Positions 3,951 to 61,056 of a DNA stretch of 61,056 nucleotides are shown one piece after another. The DNA comes from a virus. Each line of letters opens with the position of its first letter. The first letter of the stretch is position 1. A program made the position numbers and the translations under genes. The stretch lies in IMG/VR virus record IMGVR_UViG_3300027498_000004, positions 1 through 61,056 of that record. One strand, given 5' to 3'. The notes beneath the pieces are model-generated. The model saw nothing but the letters and a program-made list of their open reading frames with translations. It did no database searches and was not told the origin of the DNA.

Positions 3951-3985
3951 TCAAAGAGACTCACGAAAAGTAAGAACTAAATTAG

Positions 3986-4058
<73 letters not shown>

Positions 4059-5266: not shown

Positions 5267-6017
5267 GAAATTTCCACCAATCACTAACAAGCAGATAGAG
5301 TACTGTATACTGCAGGCAGTTAAGAACTTTCCCAATAACAAGAACTTCTCTGTTAATACATTTGCCTTTGTCGACTCTGGCAAGGCTATGCAGTCCGAGA
5401 ACTTGGGCCATACCTGGAACAGTTACAAGAACGGGGAGTTCTGGTCACGTGCTTGGGTAATGGGAGGAGCCAAGCGAGACGAAATCAAGAAGCAGTATCC
5501 AATACTAGCAATCGAACAGAAAGGTTCATATAGACCTGAGCTATGTGGCCCCACCAAGTGCTTTGCCTATGACCTGGCACTCATGGATATAATAGAGTGC
5601 AGCAATTGCCAGAAGTGGAAAAAGGATCGCACCGTTCGACAGATAGACTGCGACCTGGACGATGTACTCGATGCGCTATTAGAGGAGATCCTTTCCTGCA
5701 AGCAATACAAAATATTTATCAAGGACGAGGAGAATCCAGGGGAGTACATAGAGGTGATCATGATGTTGAGCGAGGGAGAGTATCTGCAGTATGTACAGGA
5801 CAATCCAGGCAAGCCAATCCAGGAAGGGGACTCTCTGGAGATGATGGTGAAGAATACTAAGATAGAGATTTCCAGTTGGGGGAGAGGATATGAACACATA
5901 CGAGGGAAGTCTCTGCGTCTAGAGTTCTGTGGATGCGTGGTGAAAAAAGAGAAGTTCAACTATGGAAATCACGAGCCTAATAAGTACATTGGAACTGATA
6001 TTTGTTCAACCTGTTAA
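5259..6017 (+). CDS. hypothetical protein, translationally coupled to the sigma factor gene
   Basis: The ATG overlaps the sigma stop by 8 nt. 252 aa with scattered Cys (C-terminus ...DICSTC). No family recognised. Confidence 0.75.
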   Translation: MAKKFPPITNKQIEYCILQAVKNFPNNKNFSVNTFAFVDSGKAMQSENLGHTWNSYKNGEFWSRAWVMGGAKRDEIKKQYPILAIEQKGSYRPELCGPTKCFAYDLALMDIIECSNCQKWKKDRTVRQIDCDLDDVLDALLEEILSCKQYKIFIKDEENPGEYIEVIMMLSEGEYLQYVQDNPGKPIQEGDSLEMMVKNTKIEISSWGRGYEHIRGKSLRLEFCGCVVKKEKFNYGNHEPNKYIGTDICSTC

Positions 6018-6027
6018 ATACACGATT

Positions 6028-6288
6028 ATGATAATGAAGATTGCACATGGATTAATGTTACTCGGAACGCTTGGACTCGCCTTTTTTGGTGTCAAGTATT
6101 TATTCACTATTGGCCACATGCCAGTCGCTATCTGTATAATTCTGATAGTACTATCCTTGGTTCTTTCTGGTATCAACTCTGTAATGAGTAAGGAACCAAC
6201 GGAGCCATTGTATAACACTAGGAGTGGACCAATGCCTGCAGCACGTCCACAAGGTGGAAGGAAGCAAAAAAGAAGCAGAGCGAGATAA
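6028..6288 (+). CDS. small membrane protein (2-3 TM helices, basic tail)
   Basis: MIMKIAHGLMLLGTLGLAFFGVKYLF...ICIILIVLSLVLSGI then an RKQKRSRAR tail. The ATG at 6028 is in the ORF-track frame. Confidence 0.6.
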   Translation: MIMKIAHGLMLLGTLGLAFFGVKYLFTIGHMPVAICIILIVLSLVLSGINSVMSKEPTEPLYNTRSGPMPAARPQGGRKQKRSRAR

Positions 6289-6806
6289 TGGATTTTGTCG
6301 AAATACTAAAGAAAAACCTGCGTACAGCACTAGAAGCTAGAATCAAAGTGGGTAAGGGCATCCTTAGATCCCAGGGGCATTACAGTAGTGGTGCCCTTGA
6401 GGATAGCCTGGAGGCAGTGATACAAACAGTCGGCAATAAGATCATTGGAACTATACAGGGGCTTGACTATGGCCAGGCATTAGATACTGGAGTTCCTGCA
6501 AGAAATGTAAGATACAATCCAGAGGTGCTTCGTGATTGGGCAGAGCGTTTATTTCCAAGTAAGACCTTTCGAGAAATCACCAGTTTCATATACGCAACCA
6601 GGAGAAAGCATGGACAGGATGGTATCCCCACAAAGAGCTGGCTGGCAAGAGGGAAGCGTCTCGGATGGATCAAAGAGATGGTTACAACATCAGAAGCGAA
6701 GTTCCAGGAACTGTTAGATATAAGGACTGTATTGGAAAATGCAATCCTCCAATCCGTTAGAGAGTTTGAAAGAGGCGGTGTCCTCAACTCTTCGAGTGCT
6801 GCATAA
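6288..6806 (+). CDS. hypothetical structural protein immediately upstream of the tape measure gene
   Basis: 172-aa ORF with an ATGA-type overlap with the previous gene. Position only. Confidence 0.7.
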   Translation: MDFVEILKKNLRTALEARIKVGKGILRSQGHYSSGALEDSLEAVIQTVGNKIIGTIQGLDYGQALDTGVPARNVRYNPEVLRDWAERLFPSKTFREITSFIYATRRKHGQDGIPTKSWLARGKRLGWIKEMVTTSEAKFQELLDIRTVLENAILQSVREFERGGVLNSSSAA

Positions 6807-6815
6807 AACTGAATA

Positions 6816-9800
6816 ATGAAGGTATTTTTTGAGATTGAAATAGATGGTGCGGACCTTGCCGTTAATAATCTGCAGGAATTGCGGACGGTGATCAAGCGTC
6901 TAAACAAAGACTTCGAGAATGCAGAGAAGGGTACTCCAGAATTCACACGACTACAGAACAGCCTCGCTGAGGTAAAGCAAATCCAGTCAGGTGTCCGAGC
7001 AGAGACACGAAGGCTATCAAAGGAATTTGAGCGCACAAAGTTTCCAACAGGCTCCCTTCGAGAGCTGGAGCTGCGATATCAGAAGATCAGAAACGAAATA
7101 AAGAACTTATCCGCAGAGCAGAGGAACAGTAAGTTTGGGAGAGACCTAGTAAGGCAAGCCAAGACAGCAAGAAATGAGCTTAATACCATCAACCAATCGA
7201 TGGGAGATTTCCGTACAAATGTTGGTAACTACCAAAGCGCATGGAAGGGAGTTGGTAATCTACTTGCTGGAGGTCTGATCATTGGAGCATTGACTAAGGT
7301 AGGAGGAGCACTCAAGGATTTAGGAGTGGAGATGTTCAACCAGGCAGTACAGGCAGACACGCTATCTAGAAAGTCACTCATAGTATTAGGAGAATCATAC
7401 GATCAAGTTGCAGAAGCTGCTGCCGAGAATGCAACGGCACTTGGTATTACCAATCAGCAATATATCAACCAGGCTGCAAACATAGCAGATGTTCTTATAC
7501 CAATGGGCTTCCAAAGGCAGGCAGCAGCAGAGCTTTCTACTGACCTTGTGGATCTATCTGGCGCACTTGCGGAGTGGTCGGGTGGTACCAAGTCTGCCGA
7601 GGATGCACAGAATGCCTTAAAAGCTGCCCTCACAGGAGAAAGGGAGCAGTTGAAGCAGTATGGTATTGTCCTCAAAGAAGCCGATATAAGTGCACGTTTA
7701 TTAGAAAAGGGACTATCAGGCTTAACAGGACAGGCTCTTGAACAGGCGAAGGCACAGGCTACTCTGGAGCTAATAACAGAGAGGAGTGCAGATGCGCAGA
7801 CATCTTTCAATGAAAACTCTGATTCACTTATACGAACACAGGCAAGGCTTACAGCTTCATTCAATACCATCAAGGAGAGTATAGCAACAGCTTTGATTCC
7901 AGTATTCGGAGAGGCATTGAAGGTCGCAGAGCCATTTGCACAGTTTATATCTGATCAGTTACCAAGTGCGCTCAACTTCCTCAAGGATACCTTCGCTCCA
8001 GTAGGAGATGCAATATTCAATCTAATCGATGTTGTAAGGGGAGCAAATGAAGAGAGCAGCCTATACAGCGACACACTCGGAGCATTTGCCAGGGGAAGTC
8101 TCACGTTATTGGCTAATGTATTGTCCAGCGTGATCAATGGCGTGGCCCAATTTATAAGCTTCGTCAACGGAGCCACAGATGAGACTGGTAAATTCAGCGA
8201 TGAGGCTGGCTTCCTACAGAAGGCACTGGCGTCAGTATTTATAGGGATAAGCAACCTTCCTGCAGTATTCAATGGACTGGTTGAGGTGATAAAGAATAGT
8301 GGTACCATCGTCAGCAACTTTGCCAGGGGAGCATTACTCGAAACGCAGATACTTGTCAACAGTATAAAGGGATTAGTATCTCAAGAAGCCAAGGACCGAG
8401 CCGAAACCTTACGAGGACAGCTCCGAGATCTAAGGAGCAGTGGTCTATCTGCAGGGGCAGCATTTGCAAAGGGATTTGCTGAAGCTAAGGTCCAGGCAGA
8501 GAATACAGTTGCCGATGTACCTACTGCAACAGCAACCAGAACTAAGAAGACATACAACGATCTCGGTAAAGAGGCAGGCGAGTCATTCTCGGAGGGAGTA
8601 GAAACCACCACCAAGGAGAGCACCTCTGCATTCGATGTACTTAAAGAAGAAGCCAAAGGTCTCAAGGATGAGATCAAGGAGCTGGCAGCAACAGGCGGTG
8701 AGTATGGCGATGAACTGACCAGGCTAAACGAAATCACCGAGAAGCTCAACTCAATCAATGCTATATTCAAGAAGGATGCTAAGGATACCGAGGAGCAACT
8801 CAAACGAACGGTGGACCAGGTGCAGCGTCTTGACAGCTTGCCGATCACAGTAGATGCCAATGCACAGGCTTCGCCAGAGATACGAACCAACAGAAGGTCA
8901 CAGAATGCCTTAGATACCTTTAATCAGAATGTAGCTGCGGATCCAGACAACAGGGCACAGCTAGAGCAAGATCTACAAAGCGAGCTGACGAGAATAGCGA
9001 CAGAGGGACAGATTGAACGTCTGGAGCTGGACCTTCAAAGCTCTGGTCTTAGTATCGATGGGAGGATAGAGAAGGAATTGGAGCTCGCTAACCTAAGAAA
9101 GGATCTATCTGATCAGGAAGTTGCCAATGAACAGGTAAAGGCAGACAGGATTGCAGAGATAGACAAGAAGCGTATTACTCAGTTCCAGGAAGGATTAGAG
9201 CTGGCGAGTAGCTTTGCCGATAGCCTTGGACAGATACAGGAGGCAATATCGCAGAGAAGGATCAACCAGGTCAATGAGCAGTACGATGCAGAGCTCGCAG
9301 CAGCAGAAGGAAACGAGGAGGAGATTGCCAGGATTACTGAGGAGCGTGACGCCAGGATAGAGGAAATTGAAAGAGAAGCTTTCGAGAGAAACAAACGTCT
9401 GGCCATTGCGCAGGCATTGATCAACGGGGCACTTGCTGTGACTAACATTATCGCGACAGTTCCAAAGTTTGACTTCGGTATAGCCACTGCCATACAAGTA
9501 GCAGCAGCGGTCGCCTCCACAGCAGCACAGATAGCCACTATTGGTGCGACTAGCTTCAGTGAGCGTGGTAACCTTATTCCAGTAGATTCTATCACAGCAG
9601 AGAGGGGAGCCAGCGTCAAGGCAGGCACCTTCCTACAGGGTAAGAACCACAACCAGGGCAGGCGAGGGAATACAGGGATACGATTTATGTTTGGTGGTCG
9701 CTTAGTAGAGGCACAGAACGGAGAGTTTATGGACTTCGATGAATTCGGCAATCTTGGAATAGTAAACGCAACCAGCAGCCGAGTGCATAGAGCAAAGCTG

Positions 9801-10124
9801 CAGGGAGTAGCTGGCACATCGTTTCCTGGAAAGGGAAAGTTTATGAGCGATGTGAATAGTTGGGGTGGGCATGGTAAGGTCTTTGCTATGCAAGGGGCAC
9901 TGGTACCCAACTTGTCAGGAATAAGCCAACCAGGAGGGGGAGGTGGTACACAGAATATAACCATCAGACAGGAGTTTAGCGAGGAGCAATTCGTACAACT
10001 GGAGTCTACTATTGAGAGAGCAGTAGAGCGTGGTGCAATGGTAGGTACTGAGCGTGGCAATATAACTTCCAATAGAGAGATCGAACGGGATAATCAAGTT
10101 AACAATGTAATCAACGGGATATGA
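6816..10124 (+). CDS. tail tape measure protein
   Basis: 1102 aa, long Ala/Glu/Leu-rich coiled-coil-like sequence with a central hydrophobic/Gly-rich stretch. Followed by large tail genes. Confidence 0.8.
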   Translation: MKVFFEIEIDGADLAVNNLQELRTVIKRLNKDFENAEKGTPEFTRLQNSLAEVKQIQSGVRAETRRLSKEFERTKFPTGSLRELELRYQKIRNEIKNLSAEQRNSKFGRDLVRQAKTARNELNTINQSMGDFRTNVGNYQSAWKGVGNLLAGGLIIGALTKVGGALKDLGVEMFNQAVQADTLSRKSLIVLGESYDQVAEAAAENATALGITNQQYINQAANIADVLIPMGFQRQAAAELSTDLVDLSGALAEWSGGTKSAEDAQNALKAALTGEREQLKQYGIVLKEADISARLLEKGLSGLTGQALEQAKAQATLELITERSADAQTSFNENSDSLIRTQARLTASFNTIKESIATALIPVFGEALKVAEPFAQFISDQLPSALNFLKDTFAPVGDAIFNLIDVVRGANEESSLYSDTLGAFARGSLTLLANVLSSVINGVAQFISFVNGATDETGKFSDEAGFLQKALASVFIGISNLPAVFNGLVEVIKNSGTIVSNFARGALLETQILVNSIKGLVSQEAKDRAETLRGQLRDLRSSGLSAGAAFAKGFAEAKVQAENTVADVPTATATRTKKTYNDLGKEAGESFSEGVETTTKESTSAFDVLKEEAKGLKDEIKELAATGGEYGDELTRLNEITEKLNSINAIFKKDAKDTEEQLKRTVDQVQRLDSLPITVDANAQASPEIRTNRRSQNALDTFNQNVAADPDNRAQLEQDLQSELTRIATEGQIERLELDLQSSGLSIDGRIEKELELANLRKDLSDQEVANEQVKADRIAEIDKKRITQFQEGLELASSFADSLGQIQEAISQRRINQVNEQYDAELAAAEGNEEEIARITEERDARIEEIEREAFERNKRLAIAQALINGALAVTNIIATVPKFDFGIATAIQVAAAVASTAAQIATIGATSFSERGNLIPVDSITAERGASVKAGTFLQGKNHNQGRRGNTGIRFMFGGRLVEAQNGEFMDFDEFGNLGIVNATSSRVHRAKLQGVAGTSFPGKGKFMSDVNSWGGHGKVFAMQGALVPNLSGISQPGGGGGTQNITIRQEFSEEQFVQLESTIERAVERGAMVGTERGNITSNREIERDNQVNNVINGI

Positions 10125-10387
10125 CTTATACAGAAATAATGGATACAATTAAAAAAGCTATGGCAGACAAAGATGTTGATAAAATCGTGGGACTGATCAA
10201 CCATACCAACAGGAGTACCATTGATCGCCACAGGCTTGCGGAGTCCAATAGAAACAGGAGATACATTGACCTCCAGAAGAAGTTCAAGTTCCTGGACGGC
10301 AAAGACTTTGAAGAGATGGATAAGATATTCAACTCGGGTTTATCTAAGGATGAAATTGAGAGAGAACTTGGCAAGATTAAAAAGTAA
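10121..10387 (+). CDS. hypothetical protein (88 aa)
   Basis: ATGA overlap with the tape measure stop. Confidence 0.7.
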   Translation: MTYTEIMDTIKKAMADKDVDKIVGLINHTNRSTIDRHRLAESNRNRRYIDLQKKFKFLDGKDFEEMDKIFNSGLSKDEIERELGKIKK

Positions 10388-33714: not shown

Positions 33715-34311
33715 ATGGGAAAGACTGTAATACTAGACAATGGCCACGCTGGAATGATTAATGGGAAGTATTCCACTCCTGGCAAGAGATCACCGAACTG
33801 GAGCAAAGGAGTGCTGTATGAGGGCGCATTCAATAGATGGATCGTCAACGGCATAATGCGGATCCTGGACAGGAATAAAGTGCCATACTACCATGTTAGT
33901 CCAGAGCTGCGAGATATTCAGCTACAGACCAGGGTAAGACGTGCAAATAAGATTTATAGCAATAACAGAGATACTTACCTATTGAGCATCCATGCCAATG
34001 CTGGAGGAGACACAGGAATAGAAGGATTCACTTCTCCTGGAGAAACCAGAGCCGACCATATAGCAGATACCTTCTTAAAGAACTTTGAAGCCAAGTTCCC
34101 ATCGATAAAGACCCGATTTGACTATTCGGATGGAGATCGCGATAAAGAGGCTGCATTCTACGTATTGCGAGAGACTTCTTGTCCAGCCTTCCTCTTCGAG
34201 TGTGGCTTTATGGATAACCAGGAGGATTACATGCTACTCACCGATCCAGAGTTCCAAGATATGACATCTGCAAACCTCGCAGGATCAATCATGGAGTTAT
34301 ATAATGGATAA
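33715..34311 (+). CDS. N-acetylmuramoyl-L-alanine amidase (Amidase_3) endolysin
   Basis: VILDNGHAG...LLSIHANAGG...AAFYVLRETSCPAFLFECGFMDN, the typical Amidase_3 pattern. Confidence 0.85.
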   Translation: MGKTVILDNGHAGMINGKYSTPGKRSPNWSKGVLYEGAFNRWIVNGIMRILDRNKVPYYHVSPELRDIQLQTRVRRANKIYSNNRDTYLLSIHANAGGDTGIEGFTSPGETRADHIADTFLKNFEAKFPSIKTRFDYSDGDRDKEAAFYVLRETSCPAFLFECGFMDNQEDYMLLTDPEFQDMTSANLAGSIMELYNG

Positions 34312-44800: not shown

Positions 44801-45138
44801 GAACGTCAGACCTTAGAGTAGCAAAACATGAGATATTTAACTTCCAGAGTTTCCTCAATGAGACAAATAGCATCAGCAGTTCATTGGTCACTAATAGTAA
44901 GTTTGGATTGTATCTGTACCCTTTCGCCAATCAAGTCTTCCATGAGAAAGGACCTAACAAGCTCAAGGAGGTTTTAGATGTAATATTCGAAGCATTGGAC
45001 TTCCTGGAGAAGAAGGTATTTCCTGGATCAACAGCTTTGCTTTTGAAGTTGCCTGTGCTGAAATGGATAATTATTGGTAAATTCACATATAAATTTATTA
45101 TTGACATCCATAAATTGCTATCAAATGAAGAAGCTTAA
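44797..45138 (+). CDS. hypothetical protein (113 aa)
   Basis: ORF track; ATGA junction upstream. Confidence 0.5.
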   Translation: MRTSDLRVAKHEIFNFQSFLNETNSISSSLVTNSKFGLYLYPFANQVFHEKGPNKLKEVLDVIFEALDFLEKKVFPGSTALLLKLPVLKWIIIGKFTYKFIIDIHKLLSNEEA

Positions 45139-46249
45139 CATTCTATTTTCGTTTTTATTCCTCATTACATTATCCTTTGCTCAGGAGAGGATAATCGTAT
45201 ACGATACACCACCTCCAGAGTCTGAGATAGACTGCTCACTACCAACTCCAATCATCCAAAATAAGGCAAGAGCCCTTTCCCAAATAGACCCTTACCCAAG
45301 GGAGATGCATGGGATACAGTTTGCACACTCTAAAGGTTGGACTGGAAAAGGTATTAAAATTGCTATCCTGGACACAGGAGTAAAGGCACACGATGACCTT
45401 CCTAGCGTTAAAGAAATAAGAGACTATACTGGCGACTCTAATTGCTGCGACAACCATGCGACACATGTATTTGGTACCAATGCAGCACTAGATAATACTT
45501 TTGGAGTAGTAGGATCTTGTGAACCAGATTTATATGACTTCCGAGTATTAGATAATAATGGATCAGGTAGCTCGATCCGAATCGGTGAAGCCATTGTAGA
45601 CGCTGCGGACGCTGGTATGGATATTATTTCCATGAGCCTTGGAGGAGACCCAAACCAAGCATTAAAGGATGCCTGCGACTATGCAATACTACAGGGATGC
45701 CTTGTCGTTGCTGCTGCAGGAAACTCTGGATCAGACGGTATGATATATCCCGCCAAGTGGTCAAATATCATAAGTGTATTTGCAGTTGATCAACAGAAGC
45801 AATCGCCAGACTTTAGCTCACATGGAATTGGTATTGTATCGAGTGGAGGAGTAAATATTTTGTCAACGATCAACAATGACGAGTATGCTCCTTTTTCTGG
45901 TACTTCTATGGCGACACCAACTATTTCTGGAGTGCTGGCCATAATGCAAGAGTACGCAATAGCACAGGGCAAAAGAATGACCCAGGTCGATGCTATTAAT
46001 GAGCTTATCCGAATTAGTGAGGATATTGGAGATCCAGGAAGAGATGTCAGGACTGGCTATGGAATCCCCGACTTAACTAAATACATTCTAAAGGAAAGAG
46101 GCGAGGTTGAAATAGAGCCCGATGATGATCCTATTGTTGATGAACCGATAAATGATGATCCACAAAACAATCCCCTTGCACTTGTGATAGTTCTTGGAAT
46201 ACTGATTGGAGTTGTTGGATTGATTGTATTAACTCAAAATAAAAAGTAG
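45125..46249 (+). CDS. subtilisin-like S8 serine protease with a signal peptide and a C-terminal TM anchor
   Basis: MKKLNILFSFLFLITLSFAQ. Catalytic triad: D in AILDTGV, H in NHATHVFGT, S in GTSMATP. Oxyanion region AAAGNSG. C-terminus LALVIVLGILIGVVGLIVL. Confidence 0.85.
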   Translation: MKKLNILFSFLFLITLSFAQERIIVYDTPPPESEIDCSLPTPIIQNKARALSQIDPYPREMHGIQFAHSKGWTGKGIKIAILDTGVKAHDDLPSVKEIRDYTGDSNCCDNHATHVFGTNAALDNTFGVVGSCEPDLYDFRVLDNNGSGSSIRIGEAIVDAADAGMDIISMSLGGDPNQALKDACDYAILQGCLVVAAAGNSGSDGMIYPAKWSNIISVFAVDQQKQSPDFSSHGIGIVSSGGVNILSTINNDEYAPFSGTSMATPTISGVLAIMQEYAIAQGKRMTQVDAINELIRISEDIGDPGRDVRTGYGIPDLTKYILKERGEVEIEPDDDPIVDEPINDDPQNNPLALVIVLGILIGVVGLIVLTQNKK

Positions 46250-46250
46250 C

Positions 46251-47084
46251 ATGAGAAACACTACCAAAGGGTGGAGACCAAATAAACCTGTATTTCCGAT
46301 TACACAAGAACAGATCGACAAGATCGAGAACTGCGATATCGTAAACCCTATGGTTGGCGATAACCATGGTTTAAAGATTCCAGAGGACTTTGACTTAGAG
46401 GAGGCAGCAGCCGAAGTATTGACAACCAGGTTGCGAGTTCAGAAGGGAATCTTTCCTTGGGATGTAGCAGAGAAGTATTGGCCATATAAATTCGATATGC
46501 CGAGATATCTTCCTAAATGCTTAGAGATAGAAGGACTCAGCTTCGATGATCCAGAGGGCATGGCTGATATAGTACACATGGATGATCCTTTAGACTTCGC
46601 CTTAGCATTAAAGAAGGCTCTCACTAATCCAAAGTATGGTGGTACTGCCAACATCAAAGGGCATCACAATAAGTGGAAGCAATTTATAGAAACGGTGATC
46701 GATGTAAATGAAACGATTACTGATTACCAGAAGCGATATATCAGGAAAGTATTTGAGACTAAGTATTACTTCGGCTTGATCCGTCCAGAAGAAGCTGCGC
46801 CAATAGGACCAATATTAACTGCATACGAAGAAGGCTGTCCAACGCACCCTGCAATCGGACAGGGACATATTGCACTATCACAAGCATCAGTTAGAGCCTT
46901 AGATAAGGAGCTGGAGCTAAAAGAGGAACAGGTGCACGATGCTTTGTATGCATCTTACTTGTGGGGATTCTTTAGAGTGATGGCTGGCGTTCACTATGGT
47001 ATCGATGCAATTATATCTATCCTAGCAGTTGGAGGATATGAGAAGCACATCAAAAAAGAAGTCCTTAACGCATATAAAATATAG
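46251..47084 (+). CDS. PAP2-superfamily protein, vanadium-dependent haloperoxidase-like
   Basis: All three PAP2 motifs: K-x6-RP (KYYFGLIRPEE), PxHPxxGxGH (PTHPAIGQGH) and R-x5-H-x3-D (RVMAGVHYGID). Confidence 0.6.
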   Translation: MRNTTKGWRPNKPVFPITQEQIDKIENCDIVNPMVGDNHGLKIPEDFDLEEAAAEVLTTRLRVQKGIFPWDVAEKYWPYKFDMPRYLPKCLEIEGLSFDDPEGMADIVHMDDPLDFALALKKALTNPKYGGTANIKGHHNKWKQFIETVIDVNETITDYQKRYIRKVFETKYYFGLIRPEEAAPIGPILTAYEEGCPTHPAIGQGHIALSQASVRALDKELELKEEQVHDALYASYLWGFFRVMAGVHYGIDAIISILAVGGYEKHIKKEVLNAYKI

Positions 47085-47090
47085 TACATA

Positions 47091-47660
47091 ATGGCAAAGA
47101 TTAAATTATCACAACTTAAGCCCAACAAAAAGAATCCTCGTAAGATCAGTGAAGCAAAACTGGCGAAGCTGCAGGAATCGATAGAGGGCTTTAAAAAGAT
47201 GATGACTATTCGAAAGATTGTCATTGATGAGAAAGGTATCATCCTTGCTGGTAATCAACGTTACCAGGCATTGAAGGCACTCGGATACAAAGAGATCCCA
47301 AGCACATGGGTGCATAAGGTTTCAAACCTATCTGAGGAGGAGAAGAAGGAATTCATGTTGAAGGACAATGATCATGGTGGAGATTGGGATGCACAGATGT
47401 TCGATAATAAATTCTGGAAGGATGAAGAGGTGAATGATTGGATGGGTGAAGAATTCCTGCAGGGACTGCCAATTGTGCCACAGGAAAAGAAAGGAGGCAA
47501 GACACAGAAGAAGGTGGCCTTCAGTGCATCGACTACTACTGTCAAGCTAAAGTACAGCGAGGCGAAATATAAGAAGGTAGTCGCTGCGCTTGCAACTATA
47601 TCCGAGGACCAGGGAGATGCCCTCTGGCAATTACTAAAAGATAAAAAACTGGTCAGATAA
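47091..47660 (+). CDS. ParB-like nuclease domain protein (stand-alone paralogue)
   Basis: KKNPRKISEAKLAKLQESI...ILAGNQRYQALKALGYKEIP. The N-terminal ~120 aa are collinear with the next ORF. Confidence 0.8.
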   Translation: MAKIKLSQLKPNKKNPRKISEAKLAKLQESIEGFKKMMTIRKIVIDEKGIILAGNQRYQALKALGYKEIPSTWVHKVSNLSEEEKKEFMLKDNDHGGDWDAQMFDNKFWKDEEVNDWMGEEFLQGLPIVPQEKKGGKTQKKVAFSASTTTVKLKYSEAKYKKVVAALATISEDQGDALWQLLKDKKLVR

Positions 47661-47661
47661 G

Positions 47662-48666
47662 ATGATAAAGCTTTCGACACTAAAAACGCACAAAAAGAAT
47701 CCTCGCATAATCAGCAATTCGGAATTGGAAAGGCTAAAGAAGTCTATCACCGATTTTGAAAAGATGATGTCCATCCGACCGATCATTGTTGATGAGAAGA
47801 ATGTAATACTAAGTGGAAATATGCGTTTTCTGGCACTCAAGAAATTAGGCTTCAAAGAAGTTGATGATACTTGGGTTAAGAAAGTAAAGAATCTGTCTGC
47901 AGATGAAAAGCGTGAATTTATCCTCAAGGATAATGATCATGCAGGCAACTGGAATTTCAATGTGTTGAGCGAGGATACATTTTGGAAATCTAGTGATGTC
48001 CAGGGCTGGATGGGTGATAGCTTCTTTGATGCCCACGATGCAAAGAATACTAAAACAACAAATGAAGATTCAAATTTCACTATAAAGCCAAAGAAAAAAC
48101 CGAACGCAAAGACTGGTGATATATTTGAATTCAAAAGTGAAAAGTTAACTCATAGGTTAATTTGTGGTGATAGCACCAAACCCGAAGATGTATCCAAATT
48201 GATGAATGGAAATAAGATCCAGCTCATTGTAACCGATCCTCCCTATGGAGTAGCTTATGTTGGAAAGACCAAGGATGCTCTTACTATCCAGAACGATGCA
48301 ATGAGCGAGGAGCAGACAATAGCTCTCTGGAGGGCTGCTATTGACGCCTTCTTTCCTTTATGGGGAAAGGGAGCATCGATATATGTAACTGTCCCTGCTG
48401 GTCCATTAAATATTGGTTTTGTTCAAGCATTAACTGATATCGGAGCTCTTCGGCAGCAGATGGTATGGAATAAGCACAAACTGGTAATGGGAAGATCAGA
48501 CTATCATTACAAACATGAGCCAATATTGTATGGCTGGAATCCAAACGGCAAGCATTACTTTATAGACGATCGAACCAAGACAATAGTGTTCGACTATAAT
48601 AAGCCAGAGCGAAATGCTGATCATCCTACAATGAAGCCAATTCCATTATGGTCGGAGTTTATATAG
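47662..48666 (+). CDS. ParB-like domain fused to an N6/N4 DNA methyltransferase, truncated by an in-frame TAG
   Basis: KKNPRIISNSELERLKKSI...; IVTDPPYG (motif IV); HPTMKPIPLWSEFI, then TAG 48664-48666. Confidence 0.85.
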   Translation: MIKLSTLKTHKKNPRIISNSELERLKKSITDFEKMMSIRPIIVDEKNVILSGNMRFLALKKLGFKEVDDTWVKKVKNLSADEKREFILKDNDHAGNWNFNVLSEDTFWKSSDVQGWMGDSFFDAHDAKNTKTTNEDSNFTIKPKKKPNAKTGDIFEFKSEKLTHRLICGDSTKPEDVSKLMNGNKIQLIVTDPPYGVAYVGKTKDALTIQNDAMSEEQTIALWRAAIDAFFPLWGKGASIYVTVPAGPLNIGFVQALTDIGALRQQMVWNKHKLVMGRSDYHYKHEPILYGWNPNGKHYFIDDRTKTIVFDYNKPERNADHPTMKPIPLWSEFI

Positions 48667-49158: not shown

Positions 49159-50301
49159 ATGTCACAAAAAGGAAATTACACAAACGAAATTGCCCAGGCA
49201 CCTGTTACAATGATTATAGACCCTCAACCTTACGGCTTAGAGCATAACAAGGCTCTGGCTGTAAGGGAATTTTTCACACCTATGATCGATGTGATGGTAA
49301 AGCTTGAGAATGAAGTAAACGAAGTGCTGGCTCTCAAGGAGCAGCATGGCTATGCAGAGGAGGTTATTACTAAGGCAACCGAAGCATACAAGAAGCTAGT
49401 GAAGGCTCGAACTGCTACTGCAAAAATCCACAAGGAGGTGAAAGCTACAAACCTCAAGGAGGGACGCTTTATCGATTCCCATAAGAACACTCAGGTTATG
49501 ATTGGGGATCCACTGGAAAAGGCAATGAAGGCGATCAAGGATCATGCAGAGAACCTGGAACGGGAGAGAATCAAAAAGGTAAAGGAGGATCGTACTAATA
49601 AACTCCTCGCTTTGGATGTGGTCGAATCTGATATCCCCGATATGATAGGGATAATGACGGACGGCATGTTTGAAAACCTCCTCCTTGGCGCACAGGCTGC
49701 ATTTGATAAGCGACTGGAAGAGGCAAAGGAAGAAGCTCGCCTGGAGCAGCTAAGGATAGACCAGGAGGCAAGAGAAAAGGCAGAGAAGGAAGCCAAACGC
49801 CAGGAAGAGCTCCGAATAGCACAGGAAGCAGCTGCCGAAGCAAAGAAGGCCCAGGAAGCAGCCGAAGCAGCTGCGAAGAAGGTCAAAGATGAGGCTGAGG
49901 CTAAATTACAGGCTGAACGTGATGCGAAAGCCAAAGTTGAAGCCCAGGCCAAGGAGGAGAAGCGTAAGGCAGACCTAGCAGCACAGAAAGCCCGACAAGC
50001 GATGCAGAAGGCAGAGCAATCGCAAAAGAACGCTGAGAAGGCTAAAAAACAGGTTTCGGAGCTAAAAAAGAGAAACGAAACGCTGAGTTTCAATGCTCCT
50101 GCGCCAACTGGCAATAAACCGAAGGAAGAGAAGCTCACCAAGATAGCTCAGGACCGAAACGCCAGCAACTTGATCAAGCTCAAAGCTGACCTAATCAAAA
50201 TAAAGGACGGATACTCATTTCATGGACCCAAGCACGAATCATTCAAGAGGAGATTGGACGCGACTCTAGATAGAATTCTGGTTGGTATAAACCAATTGTA
50301 A
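49159..50301 (+). CDS. hypothetical protein with a long K/E/A-rich coiled-coil segment
   Basis: 380-aa ORF; low-complexity central region. Confidence 0.75.
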   Translation: MSQKGNYTNEIAQAPVTMIIDPQPYGLEHNKALAVREFFTPMIDVMVKLENEVNEVLALKEQHGYAEEVITKATEAYKKLVKARTATAKIHKEVKATNLKEGRFIDSHKNTQVMIGDPLEKAMKAIKDHAENLERERIKKVKEDRTNKLLALDVVESDIPDMIGIMTDGMFENLLLGAQAAFDKRLEEAKEEARLEQLRIDQEAREKAEKEAKRQEELRIAQEAAAEAKKAQEAAEAAAKKVKDEAEAKLQAERDAKAKVEAQAKEEKRKADLAAQKARQAMQKAEQSQKNAEKAKKQVSELKKRNETLSFNAPAPTGNKPKEEKLTKIAQDRNASNLIKLKADLIKIKDGYSFHGPKHESFKRRLDATLDRILVGINQL

Positions 50302-53139: not shown

Positions 53140-54141
53140 ATGAATTTTTACCCTCCAGAGGATGACGTGCAAGGGCACGAGAGAATTGGCGACACACTAT
53201 ACTTGATCGTCACAGTAATAATGGCTTTGTTTTTTATTCCTACCTTTTGCCAAGCCCAATGCACTCCCTGCAACGACTATTCAATATTCACTGTATACGT
53301 AAGAGGTGACATGGAGATAACCTATGAATCCAACACAAGCCCAAACCATCCAGGGTGGGAAGAGGGAATTGAATGCGATACTACTATAATTGTATTTTCA
53401 ATAGATGGAATCAGAGACACCATTGACCAGGAGCAATGTCACCAGGAAATAATATATCTAGGATGCGGACAGGAGTTTACGCTGATAGAGGATAAGGACA
53501 GCGACAGCGAGGTTCTATTTGTATACTACGACTCTTTAGTAATATCGGATCCAGTAGAGGACACCTTCATTACTTTGCATGAATGCGGAGAGTCTTATTC
53601 TTATACAGAAACTCACTCCAGCTACTTAGGCTGCGACTCTATTGTACACACACAAGTAATTGGATATCCTATTAGCGAATCCACCGACACCCTCCTCCAT
53701 CTAACAGACCACATTACAATCGACACATTGACTAATGAATACGGATGCGATAGTATAGTAACGATCGTCTGGATAGCAACCGACTTTGAAGAGGATCAAG
53801 AATATGAAATAGTGGAGATTGAAACCGAAACCGAAGAGACTCCACCTGCAGAAGAAGTAGAGCTGCAGGTGGATATACCAATAGAGGAGGAGCCAGAGCC
53901 AGTCGCGGATCTATACTTACCAAATGCATTCACACCGAATGGGGACGGCATCAACGATACCTGGCACCCTTTCCCAATAGATAAGAAAATACAATTCACC
54001 ATATATGATCGATGGGGAACAGAACTCTTCCAGGGCACCTCCTGGGACGGCTCCTTCCGCAACTTCAAAGTACAGGGCATAGTAGCATACAGGCTGGAGT
54101 ACGAAGGAGAGGTTCTATCTGGTACCATATCAATTCTATAA
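53140..54141 (+). CDS. secreted protein with a T9SS type-B C-terminal sorting domain (gliding-motility-associated CTD / CHU_C)
   Basis: Signal peptide ...LIVTVIMALFFIPTFCQAQ. Repeated GCDSIV modules and an acidic linker. C-terminus LPNAFTPNGDGINDTWHPF...FTIYDRWGTELFQGTSWDG...GIVAYRLEYEGEVLSGTISIL. Confidence 0.85.
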   Translation: MNFYPPEDDVQGHERIGDTLYLIVTVIMALFFIPTFCQAQCTPCNDYSIFTVYVRGDMEITYESNTSPNHPGWEEGIECDTTIIVFSIDGIRDTIDQEQCHQEIIYLGCGQEFTLIEDKDSDSEVLFVYYDSLVISDPVEDTFITLHECGESYSYTETHSSYLGCDSIVHTQVIGYPISESTDTLLHLTDHITIDTLTNEYGCDSIVTIVWIATDFEEDQEYEIVEIETETEETPPAEEVELQVDIPIEEEPEPVADLYLPNAFTPNGDGINDTWHPFPIDKKIQFTIYDRWGTELFQGTSWDGSFRNFKVQGIVAYRLEYEGEVLSGTISIL

Positions 54142-56031: not shown

Positions 56032-56102
56032 GGTACCATGTCCGAGTGGCTAGGAGTTGGTTTGCAAAACCAATCACATCGGTTCGAATCCGATTGGTAT
56101 CT
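56032..56102 (+). tRNA. tRNA-Cys (anticodon GCA)
   Basis: Folded by hand: acceptor GGUACCA/UGGUAUC, D arm UCC-GAGUGGCUA-GGA, anticodon arm UUGGU-UUGCAAA-ACCAA, variable loop UCAC, T arm AUCGG-UUCGAAU-CCGAU, discriminator U73. Confidence 0.85.
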
Positions 56103-56127
56103 CGGTTAGACTCTAGTTTTTTGTTGG

Positions 56128-60686: not shown

Positions 60687-61056
60687 ATGCAAAAAACATT
60701 GATTTTTAAATCGTATGCTGAATTTCTAAAAAGAGAAGATAAATCTATCAATGGTGTATCAAAATCATTTAGCGAAAAACGTTCAGACTATAAGCAAGAT
60801 AATTCAACAAATAATGGTTGTTGGAATTGCCGGTCTTGCAGCTATTGCAGCGATTGCAGCTATTGCAGCGATTGCAGCGATTGCCGCAATTGCCGGTCTT
60901 GCAGCTATTGCAGCGATTGCAGCTATTGCAGCGATTGCAGCGATTGCAGCGATTGCCGCGATTGCAGCGATTGCAGCTATTGCAGCTATTGCAGCTATTG
61001 CCGCTCTTGCAGCTATTGCAGCTCTTGCAGCTATTGCAGCGATTGCAGCTATTGCA
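60687..61056 (+). CDS. Cys-x-x triplet-repeat protein, 5' portion (runs off the window end; continues at 90-670)
   Basis: ATG 60687, 44 unique codons (MQKTLIFKSYAEFLKREDKS...NSTNNG), then CWN-CRS-CSY-CSD... units to the last base. No stop codon. Confidence 0.8.
   Translation, partial: MQKTLIFKSYAEFLKREDKSINGVSKSFSEKRSDYKQDNSTNNGCWNCRSCSYCSDCSYCSDCSDCRNCRSCSYCSDCSYCSDCSDCSDCRDCSDCSYCSYCSYCRSCSYCSSCSYCSDCSYC
60819..61056 (+). repeat. 9-bp tandem repeat array, 5' part (26 full units plus the start of the next)
   Basis: Read directly: TGT TGG AAT, TGC CGG TCT, then TGC AGC TAT/GAT units. The last 89 bp equal 1-89. Confidence 0.95.

Follow-up and report, generated by a model that had tools for sequence, protein, structure and literature searches.

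A compact phage-associated PAP2 subfamily with haloperoxidase-type residues and recurring protease neighbours

Introduction

What is an enzyme of the PAP2 superfamily, to which acid phosphatases and vanadium haloperoxidases both belong, doing in the genome of a phage? The question is raised by a gene at 46251..47084 (+) of IMG/VR virus record IMGVR_UViG_3300027498_000004, the whole of which, positions 1 to 61,056, was analyzed and is called here the window. The gene runs from ATG to TAA, stop codon included, and its open reading frame (ORF) encodes 277 amino acids (aa). The original prediction, made from the letters of the sequence alone, took the product to be a PAP2 enzyme of haloperoxidase character. 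I argue that it is very probably an active, soluble, all-helical enzyme belonging to a compact and unannotated family on the haloperoxidase side of the superfamily, one that is carried almost exclusively by phages as a mobile accessory gene.

Three motifs in one reading frame

The three signature motifs of the superfamily follow one another within the 277-aa frame, just as had been predicted. The first, F168-x-x-K171-x6-R178-P-E-E (46752..46793, +), contains the K-x6-RP sequence KYYFGLIRP (residues 171-179, nucleotides (nt) 46761-46787), has an aromatic residue three positions ahead of the lysine, and aligns to W-Y-Q-K...R-P-E of the Corallina bromoperoxidases. The second, Y192-E-E-G-C-P-T-H199-P-A-I-G-Q-G205-H206 (46824..46868, +), takes the haloperoxidase form, with an extra histidine seven residues ahead of the catalytic one and with glutamine where serine is usual. 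Its P-x-HP-x4-GH portion, PTHPAIGQGH, occupies residues 197-206 (nt 46839-46868). The third, R242-V-M-A-G-V-H248-Y-G-I-D252 (46974..47006, +), aligns to bromoperoxidase R..AGVHYxxD. Ahead of all three lies V108-H-M-D111 (46572..46583, +), which is colinear, in alignments made with hidden Markov models (HMMs), with V-H-[YF]-D of the Corallina and Acaryochloris marina bromoperoxidases. The ordered triple occurs once across the six frames of the window and in none of 200 shuffles.

The protein has a hydrophilic N-terminus. Run at a strict threshold, a Kyte-Doolittle scan picks out no hydrophobic segment at all, which bears out the claim that a signal peptide is absent. At a looser threshold the sole segment to score is the core helix at 243-261, which bears motif 3, and apart from that helix the scan gives no membrane helix.

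A family within the PAP2 superfamily

Searched by itself, the window protein gives no PAP2 match in Pfam, PHROG, NCBIfam, PADLOC or, by phmmer, the PDB, and none to the Pfam PAP2 profile (PF01569) even at E<=1. Its homologues have more to say. An index of 5.8 billion proteins contains 25 close relatives, and eight of the resulting 26 sequences match Pfam PAP2, the best with an E-value of 3.4e-8. When 1.84 billion cluster representatives were searched exhaustively with a profile, 834 clusters (at 50% identity) came back with E<=1e-3, of which 110 had E<=1e-30, and nearly all of the matches are full-length, at 250-290 aa. Repeating the homologue search with an alignment of 148 family sequences brought in almost no new members. 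The family is compact (about 250-290 aa) and has no signal peptides, and membrane helices are absent from 170 of the 172 relatives that were checked.

The 148 sequences, with identities down to about 20%, make up a profile, A2, that finds both branches of the superfamily in the PDB. The bromoperoxidase of A. marina comes first (E 2e-11), together with those of Corallina (3e-11 to 3e-10) and the iodoperoxidase of Zobellia (4cit, 3e-10). Then comes the class A acid phosphatase 1d2t (6.4e-9), in an alignment that sets query residues 151-277 against chain residues 94-220, colinear and without large insertions. Membrane PAP2 phosphatases (0.005-0.01) and the Curvularia chloroperoxidase (0.015) match much more weakly. 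The domain that Pfam calls VCPO is not found at E<=0.01 in any of the 26 sequences, and precomputed matches to PF22778, all faint, appear in four homologues only.

The modelled fold leads to the same two groups. AlphaFold gives an all-helical structure for the window protein (pLDDT 94.7, pTM 0.92), and the top Foldseek matches to it are bromoperoxidases (E 8.5e-4, probability 1.0), with a TM of 0.40-0.46 on the query and 0.20-0.23 on the target. Class A acid phosphatases are next, also with probability 1.0, and in the case of 7f17 the TM is 0.42 on the query and 0.53 on the target. Within a library of viral structures, the only proteins to match are PAP2 proteins of giant viruses, among them those of Yasminevirus (A0A5K0U6L7) and Hokovirus (A0A1V0SGK0), found with E-values of 3e-5 and 2e-4 and probability 1.0. 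These are proteins of 485-637 aa from viruses of eukaryotes, 17-21% identical to the phage protein, and they fall outside the compact phage family.

The predicted membership of the window protein in the PAP2 superfamily is therefore transitive, passing from its homologues through profile searches to the fold. The prediction that a PAP2 profile would recognize the gene comes out split: homologues hit PAP2 and the family profile hits haloperoxidases, while the window protein alone stays below the PAP2 threshold. The classification itself is supported, by the eight homologues, by the PDB matches of the family profile and by Foldseek, and so is the view that motifs 2 and 3 resemble those of vanadium haloperoxidases more than those of the classical acid phosphatases, since the alignment is colinear over both of them and extends to further shared motifs. 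I would class the family as a new subfamily, compact and associated with phages, that belongs on the superfamily's haloperoxidase side.

Residues of the active site

Seven positions are invariant in all 148 sequences of A2: D111, K171, R178, H199, H206, R242 and H248. Three more are nearly so, G205 (144/148), P179 (138/148) and F168 (136/148). Two positions are relaxed. The serine of motif 2, at position 204, is Ala in 105 sequences, Gln in 26 (as it is in the window protein) and Ser in only five, and the aspartate of motif 3, D252, is present in 108 of the 148.

The seven residues that surround vanadate in the Curvularia enzyme are K353, R360, S402, G403, H404, R490 and H496 (PMC10278073), and W350 and F397, in the same numbering, are proposed halide-site residues; Corallina has His in place of F397 (PMC9144378). 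The window protein has aligned counterparts to six of the seven residues at the vanadate site. With the 1qhb residue numbers counted from the printed HMM alignment, K171 corresponds to Corallina K398, R178 to R406, G205 to G484, H206 to H485, R242 to R545 and H248 to H551. The seventh, S483, is opposite Q204, and that serine is replaced in the A. marina bromoperoxidase as well, where it is Ala (HPSYGAGH). Motif 2 as a whole aligns to bromoperoxidase EGSPxHPSYG[AS]GH.

Three further positions lie outside the seven vanadate ligands and nonetheless align with residues of vanadium haloperoxidases: D111 with D292, F168 with W350, and H199 with F397/His. In Corallina the equivalents are the Asp of W-V-H-F-D, the Trp at position -3 from the lysine, and H478. 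The alignment at D111 is weak when taken alone (i-Evalue 75 to 1,400). By these alignments, the family retains the shared PAP2 catalytic core plus three haloperoxidase-type positions. H248 is the predicted oxyanion-binding or nucleophilic histidine, in a positive pocket formed by K171, R178 and R242, and H206 would be placed as acid/base. The invariance of K171, R178, H206, R242 and H248 over 148 sequences argues that the protein is an enzyme rather than a scaffold.

Proteases and lysis genes beside the family

The gene that precedes the PAP2-like gene encodes an S8 subtilase (45125..46249, +; Pfam Peptidase_S8, E 9.6e-38). Its TAG stop codon ends one base ahead of the ATG at 46251, so the PAP2-like gene does directly follow an exported S8 protease gene, as originally described. 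The subtilase has a signal-like N-terminal segment, a catalytic domain, an acidic linker rich in Pro and Asp, a C-terminal membrane anchor and a cytoplasmic tail of four residues, QNKK. A propeptide (I9) domain was not detected in it. A membrane-anchored S8 subtilase is unusual for a phage. Could the two genes be expressed as one protein, through a frameshift? The junction reads AAG TAG C ATG, with the genes in different frames and no slippery sequence seen, and the idea was dropped.

The arrangement is not confined to the window. An endoprotease of the S8, astacin, M43 or M10 type is adjacent to, overlaps or is fused with the PAP2-like gene in seven of about 31 distinct loci. In one locus (L027) an S8 gene lies directly downstream with an 8-nt overlap (Pfam 1.2e-32). 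In another (L026) the immediate upstream neighbour is an astacin gene (1.1e-5, above Pfam's cut-off) that overlaps the PAP2-like gene by 4 nt, and an astacin-like lipoprotein related to that protease (4e-27) is encoded upstream in L015/L040. An M43-like lipoprotein with the sequence HEIGHHFFLSH is encoded upstream in L017, where the phmmer match is weak (1.8e-3). A trypsin-like gene, also weak, is found two genes downstream in L028.

Two ORFs go further and join protease to PAP2-like domain. P0056 (L023 77-2194) is a single ORF with a lipoprotein signal, an M43 domain, an acidic linker, a membrane helix and a full PAP2-like domain, an arrangement that amounts to the two genes of the window joined into one. 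Its membrane helix would tether the PAP2-like domain to the cytoplasmic face of the membrane. P0084 (L022 1806-3146) joins an M10 domain to a full PAP2-like domain, without signal peptide or membrane helix. Each comes from one short contig and may be an artefact of assembly or frameshift.

How many such neighbours would be expected by chance? If 1-2% of phage accessory genes encode proteases of these kinds, then, by a rough estimate, about one adjacency. The protease next to the window gene is not incidental, and the coupling to proteases recurs across the family.

A second association is with lysis. In three loci the PAP2-like gene lies in or adjoins a lysis cassette. The next gene in L006 is a homologue of the window endolysin; in L020 genes for two holins and a peptidase come directly after it; and in L019 a muramidase gene stands shortly ahead of it, separated from it by an uncalled ORF of 94 aa (from an ORF scan) with a single membrane helix and then by a called gene of 196 aa. 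Beyond the proteases, all-vs-all comparisons of neighbouring ORFs (in sets of 14, 21 and 38 loci) found no family common to more than four loci. A fixed operon is thereby ruled out, and what is left are the looser protease and lysis associations. Other neighbours are tail-fibre-like or collagen-like proteins and exported hydrolases, including a nuclease, a lipase and a GH5 enzyme.

Four unrelated protease families appear to be interchangeable as partners, as if proteolysis in general were what matters. Another role for the PAP2 fold may be considered: the protein might be a substrate, an activator or a partner subunit of the protease, or otherwise an enzyme that neither hydrolyses nor halogenates, such as an isomerase like NapH3, or a regulator that senses an oxyanion. 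The PAP2-like domain would then depend on proteolysis or control it. The relaxation of the motif-2 Ser and motif-3 Asp would fit with such a departure from standard catalysis, as would the fact that H199 is held more strictly here than is the equivalent Phe/His position among true haloperoxidases. Against this, all five residues of the oxyanion core are invariant over 148 sequences, as is expected of an enzyme that uses the site, and about 24 of the 31 loci have no protease nearby. I know of no precedent for a PAP2 domain that regulates a protease. This kind of role seems unlikely.

Phosphatase or haloperoxidase?

Acid phosphatases and vanadium haloperoxidases have been proposed to share a common ancestor, and their active sites are nearly superposable (PMC9144378). 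One pocket can support two chemistries, the first through a phospho-His intermediate, the second through a vanadate cofactor that activates H2O2 for the oxidation of halide. The family described here may be intermediate between the two.

My tentative choice, made with somewhat less than even confidence, is that the phage protein acts as a histidine phosphohydrolase. H248 would attack a phosphomonoester or pyrophosphate to give a phospho-His intermediate, subsequently hydrolysed, and H206 would protonate the leaving group. The enzyme, made in the cytoplasm without a signal peptide, would work late in infection alongside its partner endoprotease, which in the window is the membrane-anchored, exported S8 subtilase. 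The substrate would probably be on the cell envelope or on host proteins, reached perhaps through holin lesions in the manner of canonical endolysins. Those endolysins have no signal peptide and reach the periplasm through the lesions that holins make, so the lack of a signal peptide here leaves room for a target in the envelope. As to the substrate, no single class is a likely guess: an envelope or lipid-linked phosphate, itself unlikely, is the first to consider, a nucleotide or signalling molecule is more doubtful, and a phosphoprotein or peptide is a long shot. The gene, its family, its fold, the conserved residues, the phage setting and the coupling to proteases and lysis genes are shown, whereas reaction, substrate, timing and compartment are all things that I infer, and a late role at the envelope together with the protease is offered as a reasonable working model.

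What favours hydrolysis of phosphate is in the first place size. The chains of class A acid phosphatases, at 217-261 aa, are close to the 277 aa of the phage protein, whereas about half of the haloperoxidase chain is missing from it, as reflected in the low TM on the target. Synthesis in the cytoplasm, the presence of members on GC-rich contigs with a gene set of Proteobacteria type, and the membrane-tethered fusion P0056 favour it as well. The class A enzymes (Escherichia blattae 1D2T, Salmonella PhoN 2AKC, Pseudomonas aeruginosa 7F17) are also soluble and single-domain, and they share the catalytic K / R / G-H / R / H. The phage protein is nevertheless not one of them, because it has no signal peptide, a different N-terminal half and no motif-2 Ser; its N-terminal 150 residues, including D111, have no counterpart in the phosphatases. 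Class A acid phosphatases are periplasmic enzymes. The positions of H199 and F168 are presumably not His and not aromatic in the E. blattae sequence.

Nor is it a membrane lipid phosphatase, since it has no membrane helices. PgpB (8BM3), LpxE (6EBU) and YodM (5JKI) belong to the same superfamily and have the same motifs; unlike the phage protein they are built on transmembrane helices, and their similarity to it, in profile and in fold, is much weaker than that of the soluble enzymes. The fusion P0056 hints all the same at a role close to the membrane, as in lipid phosphatases.

Several observations weigh against a phosphohydrolase. D111, F168, H199 and the RPEE sequence are conserved and of haloperoxidase type, and acid phosphatases are not known to make any use of them. 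In PAP2 phosphatases the Asp of motif 3 supports the nucleophilic His; here only 108 of the 148 sequences keep it, and in 131 of them the motif-2 Ser is replaced by Ala or Gln. The best matches in both sequence and structure are haloperoxidases, by a small margin. No substrate can be named, and the neighbours, with no family outside the proteases found in more than four loci, do not point to one. Finally, it is not obvious what substrate the two partners could share, because both in the window and in P0056 the protease is predicted to be periplasmic and the PAP2-like domain cytoplasmic.

An alternative view, with an appreciable chance of being right that I would still put well below even, is that the protein is a true haloperoxidase that depends on vanadate, which would make it both the smallest known and the first found in a virus. 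Vanadate would be attached covalently to H248 and held in place by K171, R178, R242 and the backbone of G205. H206, as acid/base, would bind H2O2, and near F168 and H199 the peroxovanadate would turn bromide or iodide into hypohalous acid by oxidation. The top matches of both the profile (2e-11 to 3e-10) and Foldseek are vanadium bromo- and iodoperoxidases: those of Corallina officinalis/pilulifera (1QHB, 1UP8), A. marina (5LPC), Ascophyllum nodosum (1QI9) and Zobellia galactanivorans (4CIT). The phage protein shares with them V-H-x-D, an aromatic-x-x-K...R-P-E, E-G-[CS]-P-x-H-P-x-x-x-x-G-H and R-x-x-A-G-V-H-Y-x-x-D. Six of seven vanadate-site residues are in place, with a seventh that is also dispensed with in A. 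marina; H199 and F168 align to the proposed halide-site residues (the Corallina His for Phe397, and Trp350); and the Asp of V-H-[YF]-D has its counterpart in D111, at a distance of 60 residues from the lysine, compared with 61 between Asp292 and Lys353 of Curvularia. The nearest relatives are on contigs labelled as marine metagenome, and two viral contigs (L078, L079) encode haloperoxidase-like proteins of larger size.

The chief difficulty is length. With its 277 aa the phage protein covers less than half of any haloperoxidase known (these have about 450 aa or more, and the bromo- and iodoperoxidases compared here 458-666 aa), and it has a counterpart only to their C-terminal, active-site half. 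The architecture of a haloperoxidase, with its two helical bundles, at least ~450 aa and VCPO domains, is lacking, so in the strict sense the protein is not a vanadium haloperoxidase. Dimerisation could supply the missing second bundle, as in algal bromoperoxidases, where each monomer of the dimer contributes one bundle to a two-bundle core (PMC9144378). Unlike the known enzymes, the protein is encoded by a phage and predicted to be cytoplasmic, and in the cytoplasm vanadate would be scarce and hypohalous acid damaging to the phage's own DNA. Acid phosphatases trail by about two orders of magnitude in E-value, the alignment at V-H-M-D is a weak one by itself, and the absence of a VCPO match, the four faint ones aside, counts on the same side. 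Homologues of the NapH3 type show, moreover, that the lineage can lose its halogenating chemistry (title of PDB entry 8cxl).

If halogenation were nonetheless the answer, the partner protease could be given a part in it: the oxidant could act with the protease on envelope or matrix proteins, or in activating the protease. Carried to its conclusion, this would make the gene a minimal phage haloperoxidase of ~270 residues, near the branch point of acid phosphatases and haloperoxidases, and one half of a two-part weapon wielded with an endoprotease around lysis. I consider that rather unlikely. Were it true, the hypohalous acid would activate the protease or act as an oxidant on proteins of the envelope or matrix, much as myeloperoxidase works together with proteases in neutrophils, and phages of Bacteroidota might rely on this as one step in getting through the outer membrane or cell surface. 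How those phages disrupt the outer membrane is poorly characterised.

For enzymology, a full pocket for vanadate or phosphate with three haloperoxidase-type residues, in half the usual chain length, is a natural minimal scaffold, and one with some appeal for biocatalysis should it prove to halogenate. The signature of protease and lysis genes points to an undescribed activity late in infection. The superfamily was already known, and the present evidence does not overturn anything about it. What is new here is that a family has been defined, 834 clusters (at 50% identity) of an accessory gene that had no annotation, and that it has residues of haloperoxidase type beyond the core, is missing from phage reference resources and shows an unexpected coupling to proteases and lysis genes.

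Distribution of the family

None of the 26 closest members matches a PHROG family. A tblastn search with two members of the family against 50,697 GenBank phage records found no match, nor did a megablast search of GenBank phages with the 5 kb around the gene, and a description of a compact phage PAP2 or haloperoxidase family was not found in the searchable literature. These negatives, from PHROG, from GenBank phages (for two members) and from the literature, are consistent with the remark that PAP2 or haloperoxidase chemistry is not a described phage function. Scanning 185,579 species-representative genomes with the motif pattern gave only five loci, all of them in metagenome-assembled genomes. 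Two pattern scans of IMG/VR gave about ten loci, and a metagenome scan with the 26-sequence alignment gave 47, about 15 of which carry the compact family. The nearest relatives are on contigs labelled as marine metagenome or with identifiers Ga0114953-57, adjoining that of a contig, Ga0114952, that bears an identical copy of the window protein.

The family is found almost only on phage-like metagenomic contigs, and wherever the context contains hallmark genes it is phage-like. The phages differ, as do the positions of the gene within them. L001 is a distant relative of the window phage, L003 a Mu-like myovirus with an integrase, and L005 an 82-kb phage with PolA and DnaB; the gene may come after that for the tape measure, at the end of the tail-fibre genes or amid genes for replication. 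No gene is better conserved between L001 and the window phage than this one (66% aa, 68% nt), and yet it is differently placed in the two, which is how a mobile accessory gene would behave. Some members are on GC-rich contigs with a gene set of the Mu-like or Proteobacteria type, so the family may not be only marine.

It is not strictly confined to phages either. On a 230-kb contig of a Gracilibacteria metagenome-assembled genome, a member (L008 9914-10855) stands between housekeeping genes for M17 aminopeptidase and argininosuccinate synthase and looks chromosomal. An exported cellular version was considered here and rejected: the ORF has an internal Met where members of the family normally start, and the hydrophobic extension ahead of it is probably a product of the way in which the ORF was called. 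The L074 ORF, which lies in GC-rich DNA, seems to owe its long N-terminus to the same artefact.

A second, separate occurrence of the superfamily in viral sequence is found on two GC-rich IMG/VR viral contigs (L078 4849-6357, L079 4784-6082). The proteins are larger, 432-502 aa, and their motifs, YAEGCP[LV]HPDYPSGH and WGRNFAGIH, are classically haloperoxidase-like.

In L001 the gene has a neighbour of a different kind. Together with an Acb2/Tad1-hairpin gene it forms a two-gene island (5724-6873) between the tape measure and the next tail gene, a place occupied in the window (10124-10387) by a gap of 263 bp and nothing else. Homologues of the Acb2/Tad1-hairpin gene lie 3-6 kb from the PAP2-like gene in L005 and L017. 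One might suppose from this that the enzyme is an anti-defence phosphohydrolase that destroys a nucleotide immune signal or the nucleotide pool, a special case of the phosphohydrolase proposed above, and the window gene does sit among DNA methyltransferase genes. PADLOC gives no match to it, however, the association is seen in three loci and is one of adjacency in only one of them, and the coupling to proteases and lysis genes would be left unexplained. Most known immune signals, besides, are cyclic phosphodiesters without a phosphomonoester. I regard an anti-defence function as improbable.

The phage genome of the window

That the gene sits in a phage genome is confirmed by hallmark genes for the terminase large subunit, major head protein, tape measure, helicase and RecT, and by an endolysin gene at 33715-34311; an exonuclease and a Holliday-junction resolvase are also encoded. 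The first 89 bases of the window are identical to the last (1-89 and 60968-61056), a direct terminal repeat, and for this reason the 61-kb window is probably a complete phage genome. Its G+C content is 40.7%, essentially all of its long ORFs are on the + strand, and the composition and codon use of the PAP2-like gene agree with the remainder.

The original prediction spoke of phages of marine Flavobacteriia, for which there is partial support. A gene at 53311-54141 contains a CHU_C domain, which I take to be a C-terminal sorting domain for type IX secretion in Bacteroidota. It suggests a host from that phylum, and would imply that a phage protein is exported through the secretion system of the host. 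The nearest relatives, as noted, are on contigs with marine labels.

Downstream of the PAP2-like gene, two genes in tandem (47091-47660 and 47662-48666) have paralogous N-terminal domains that resemble ParB-N (MAKIKLSQLKPNKKNPRKIS... / MIKLSTLKTHKKNPRIIS...). The second of them runs on into an N6/N4 DNA methyltransferase (PADLOC MTase_II, 2.4e-53), and the first resembles a free-standing copy of the N-terminal domain of the second. A 380-aa protein is encoded farther on, at 49159-50301. It has a long low-complexity stretch rich in Ala, Lys and Glu, with AEAKK-like repeats, probably a coiled coil, and falls within the locally most G+C-rich kilobase among those sampled (0.469). The window also contains two tRNA genes: tRNA-Cys (GCA) at 56032-56103 (+), and tRNA-Met (CAT) at 3985-4058 (-), on the strand opposite to that of essentially all of the protein genes.

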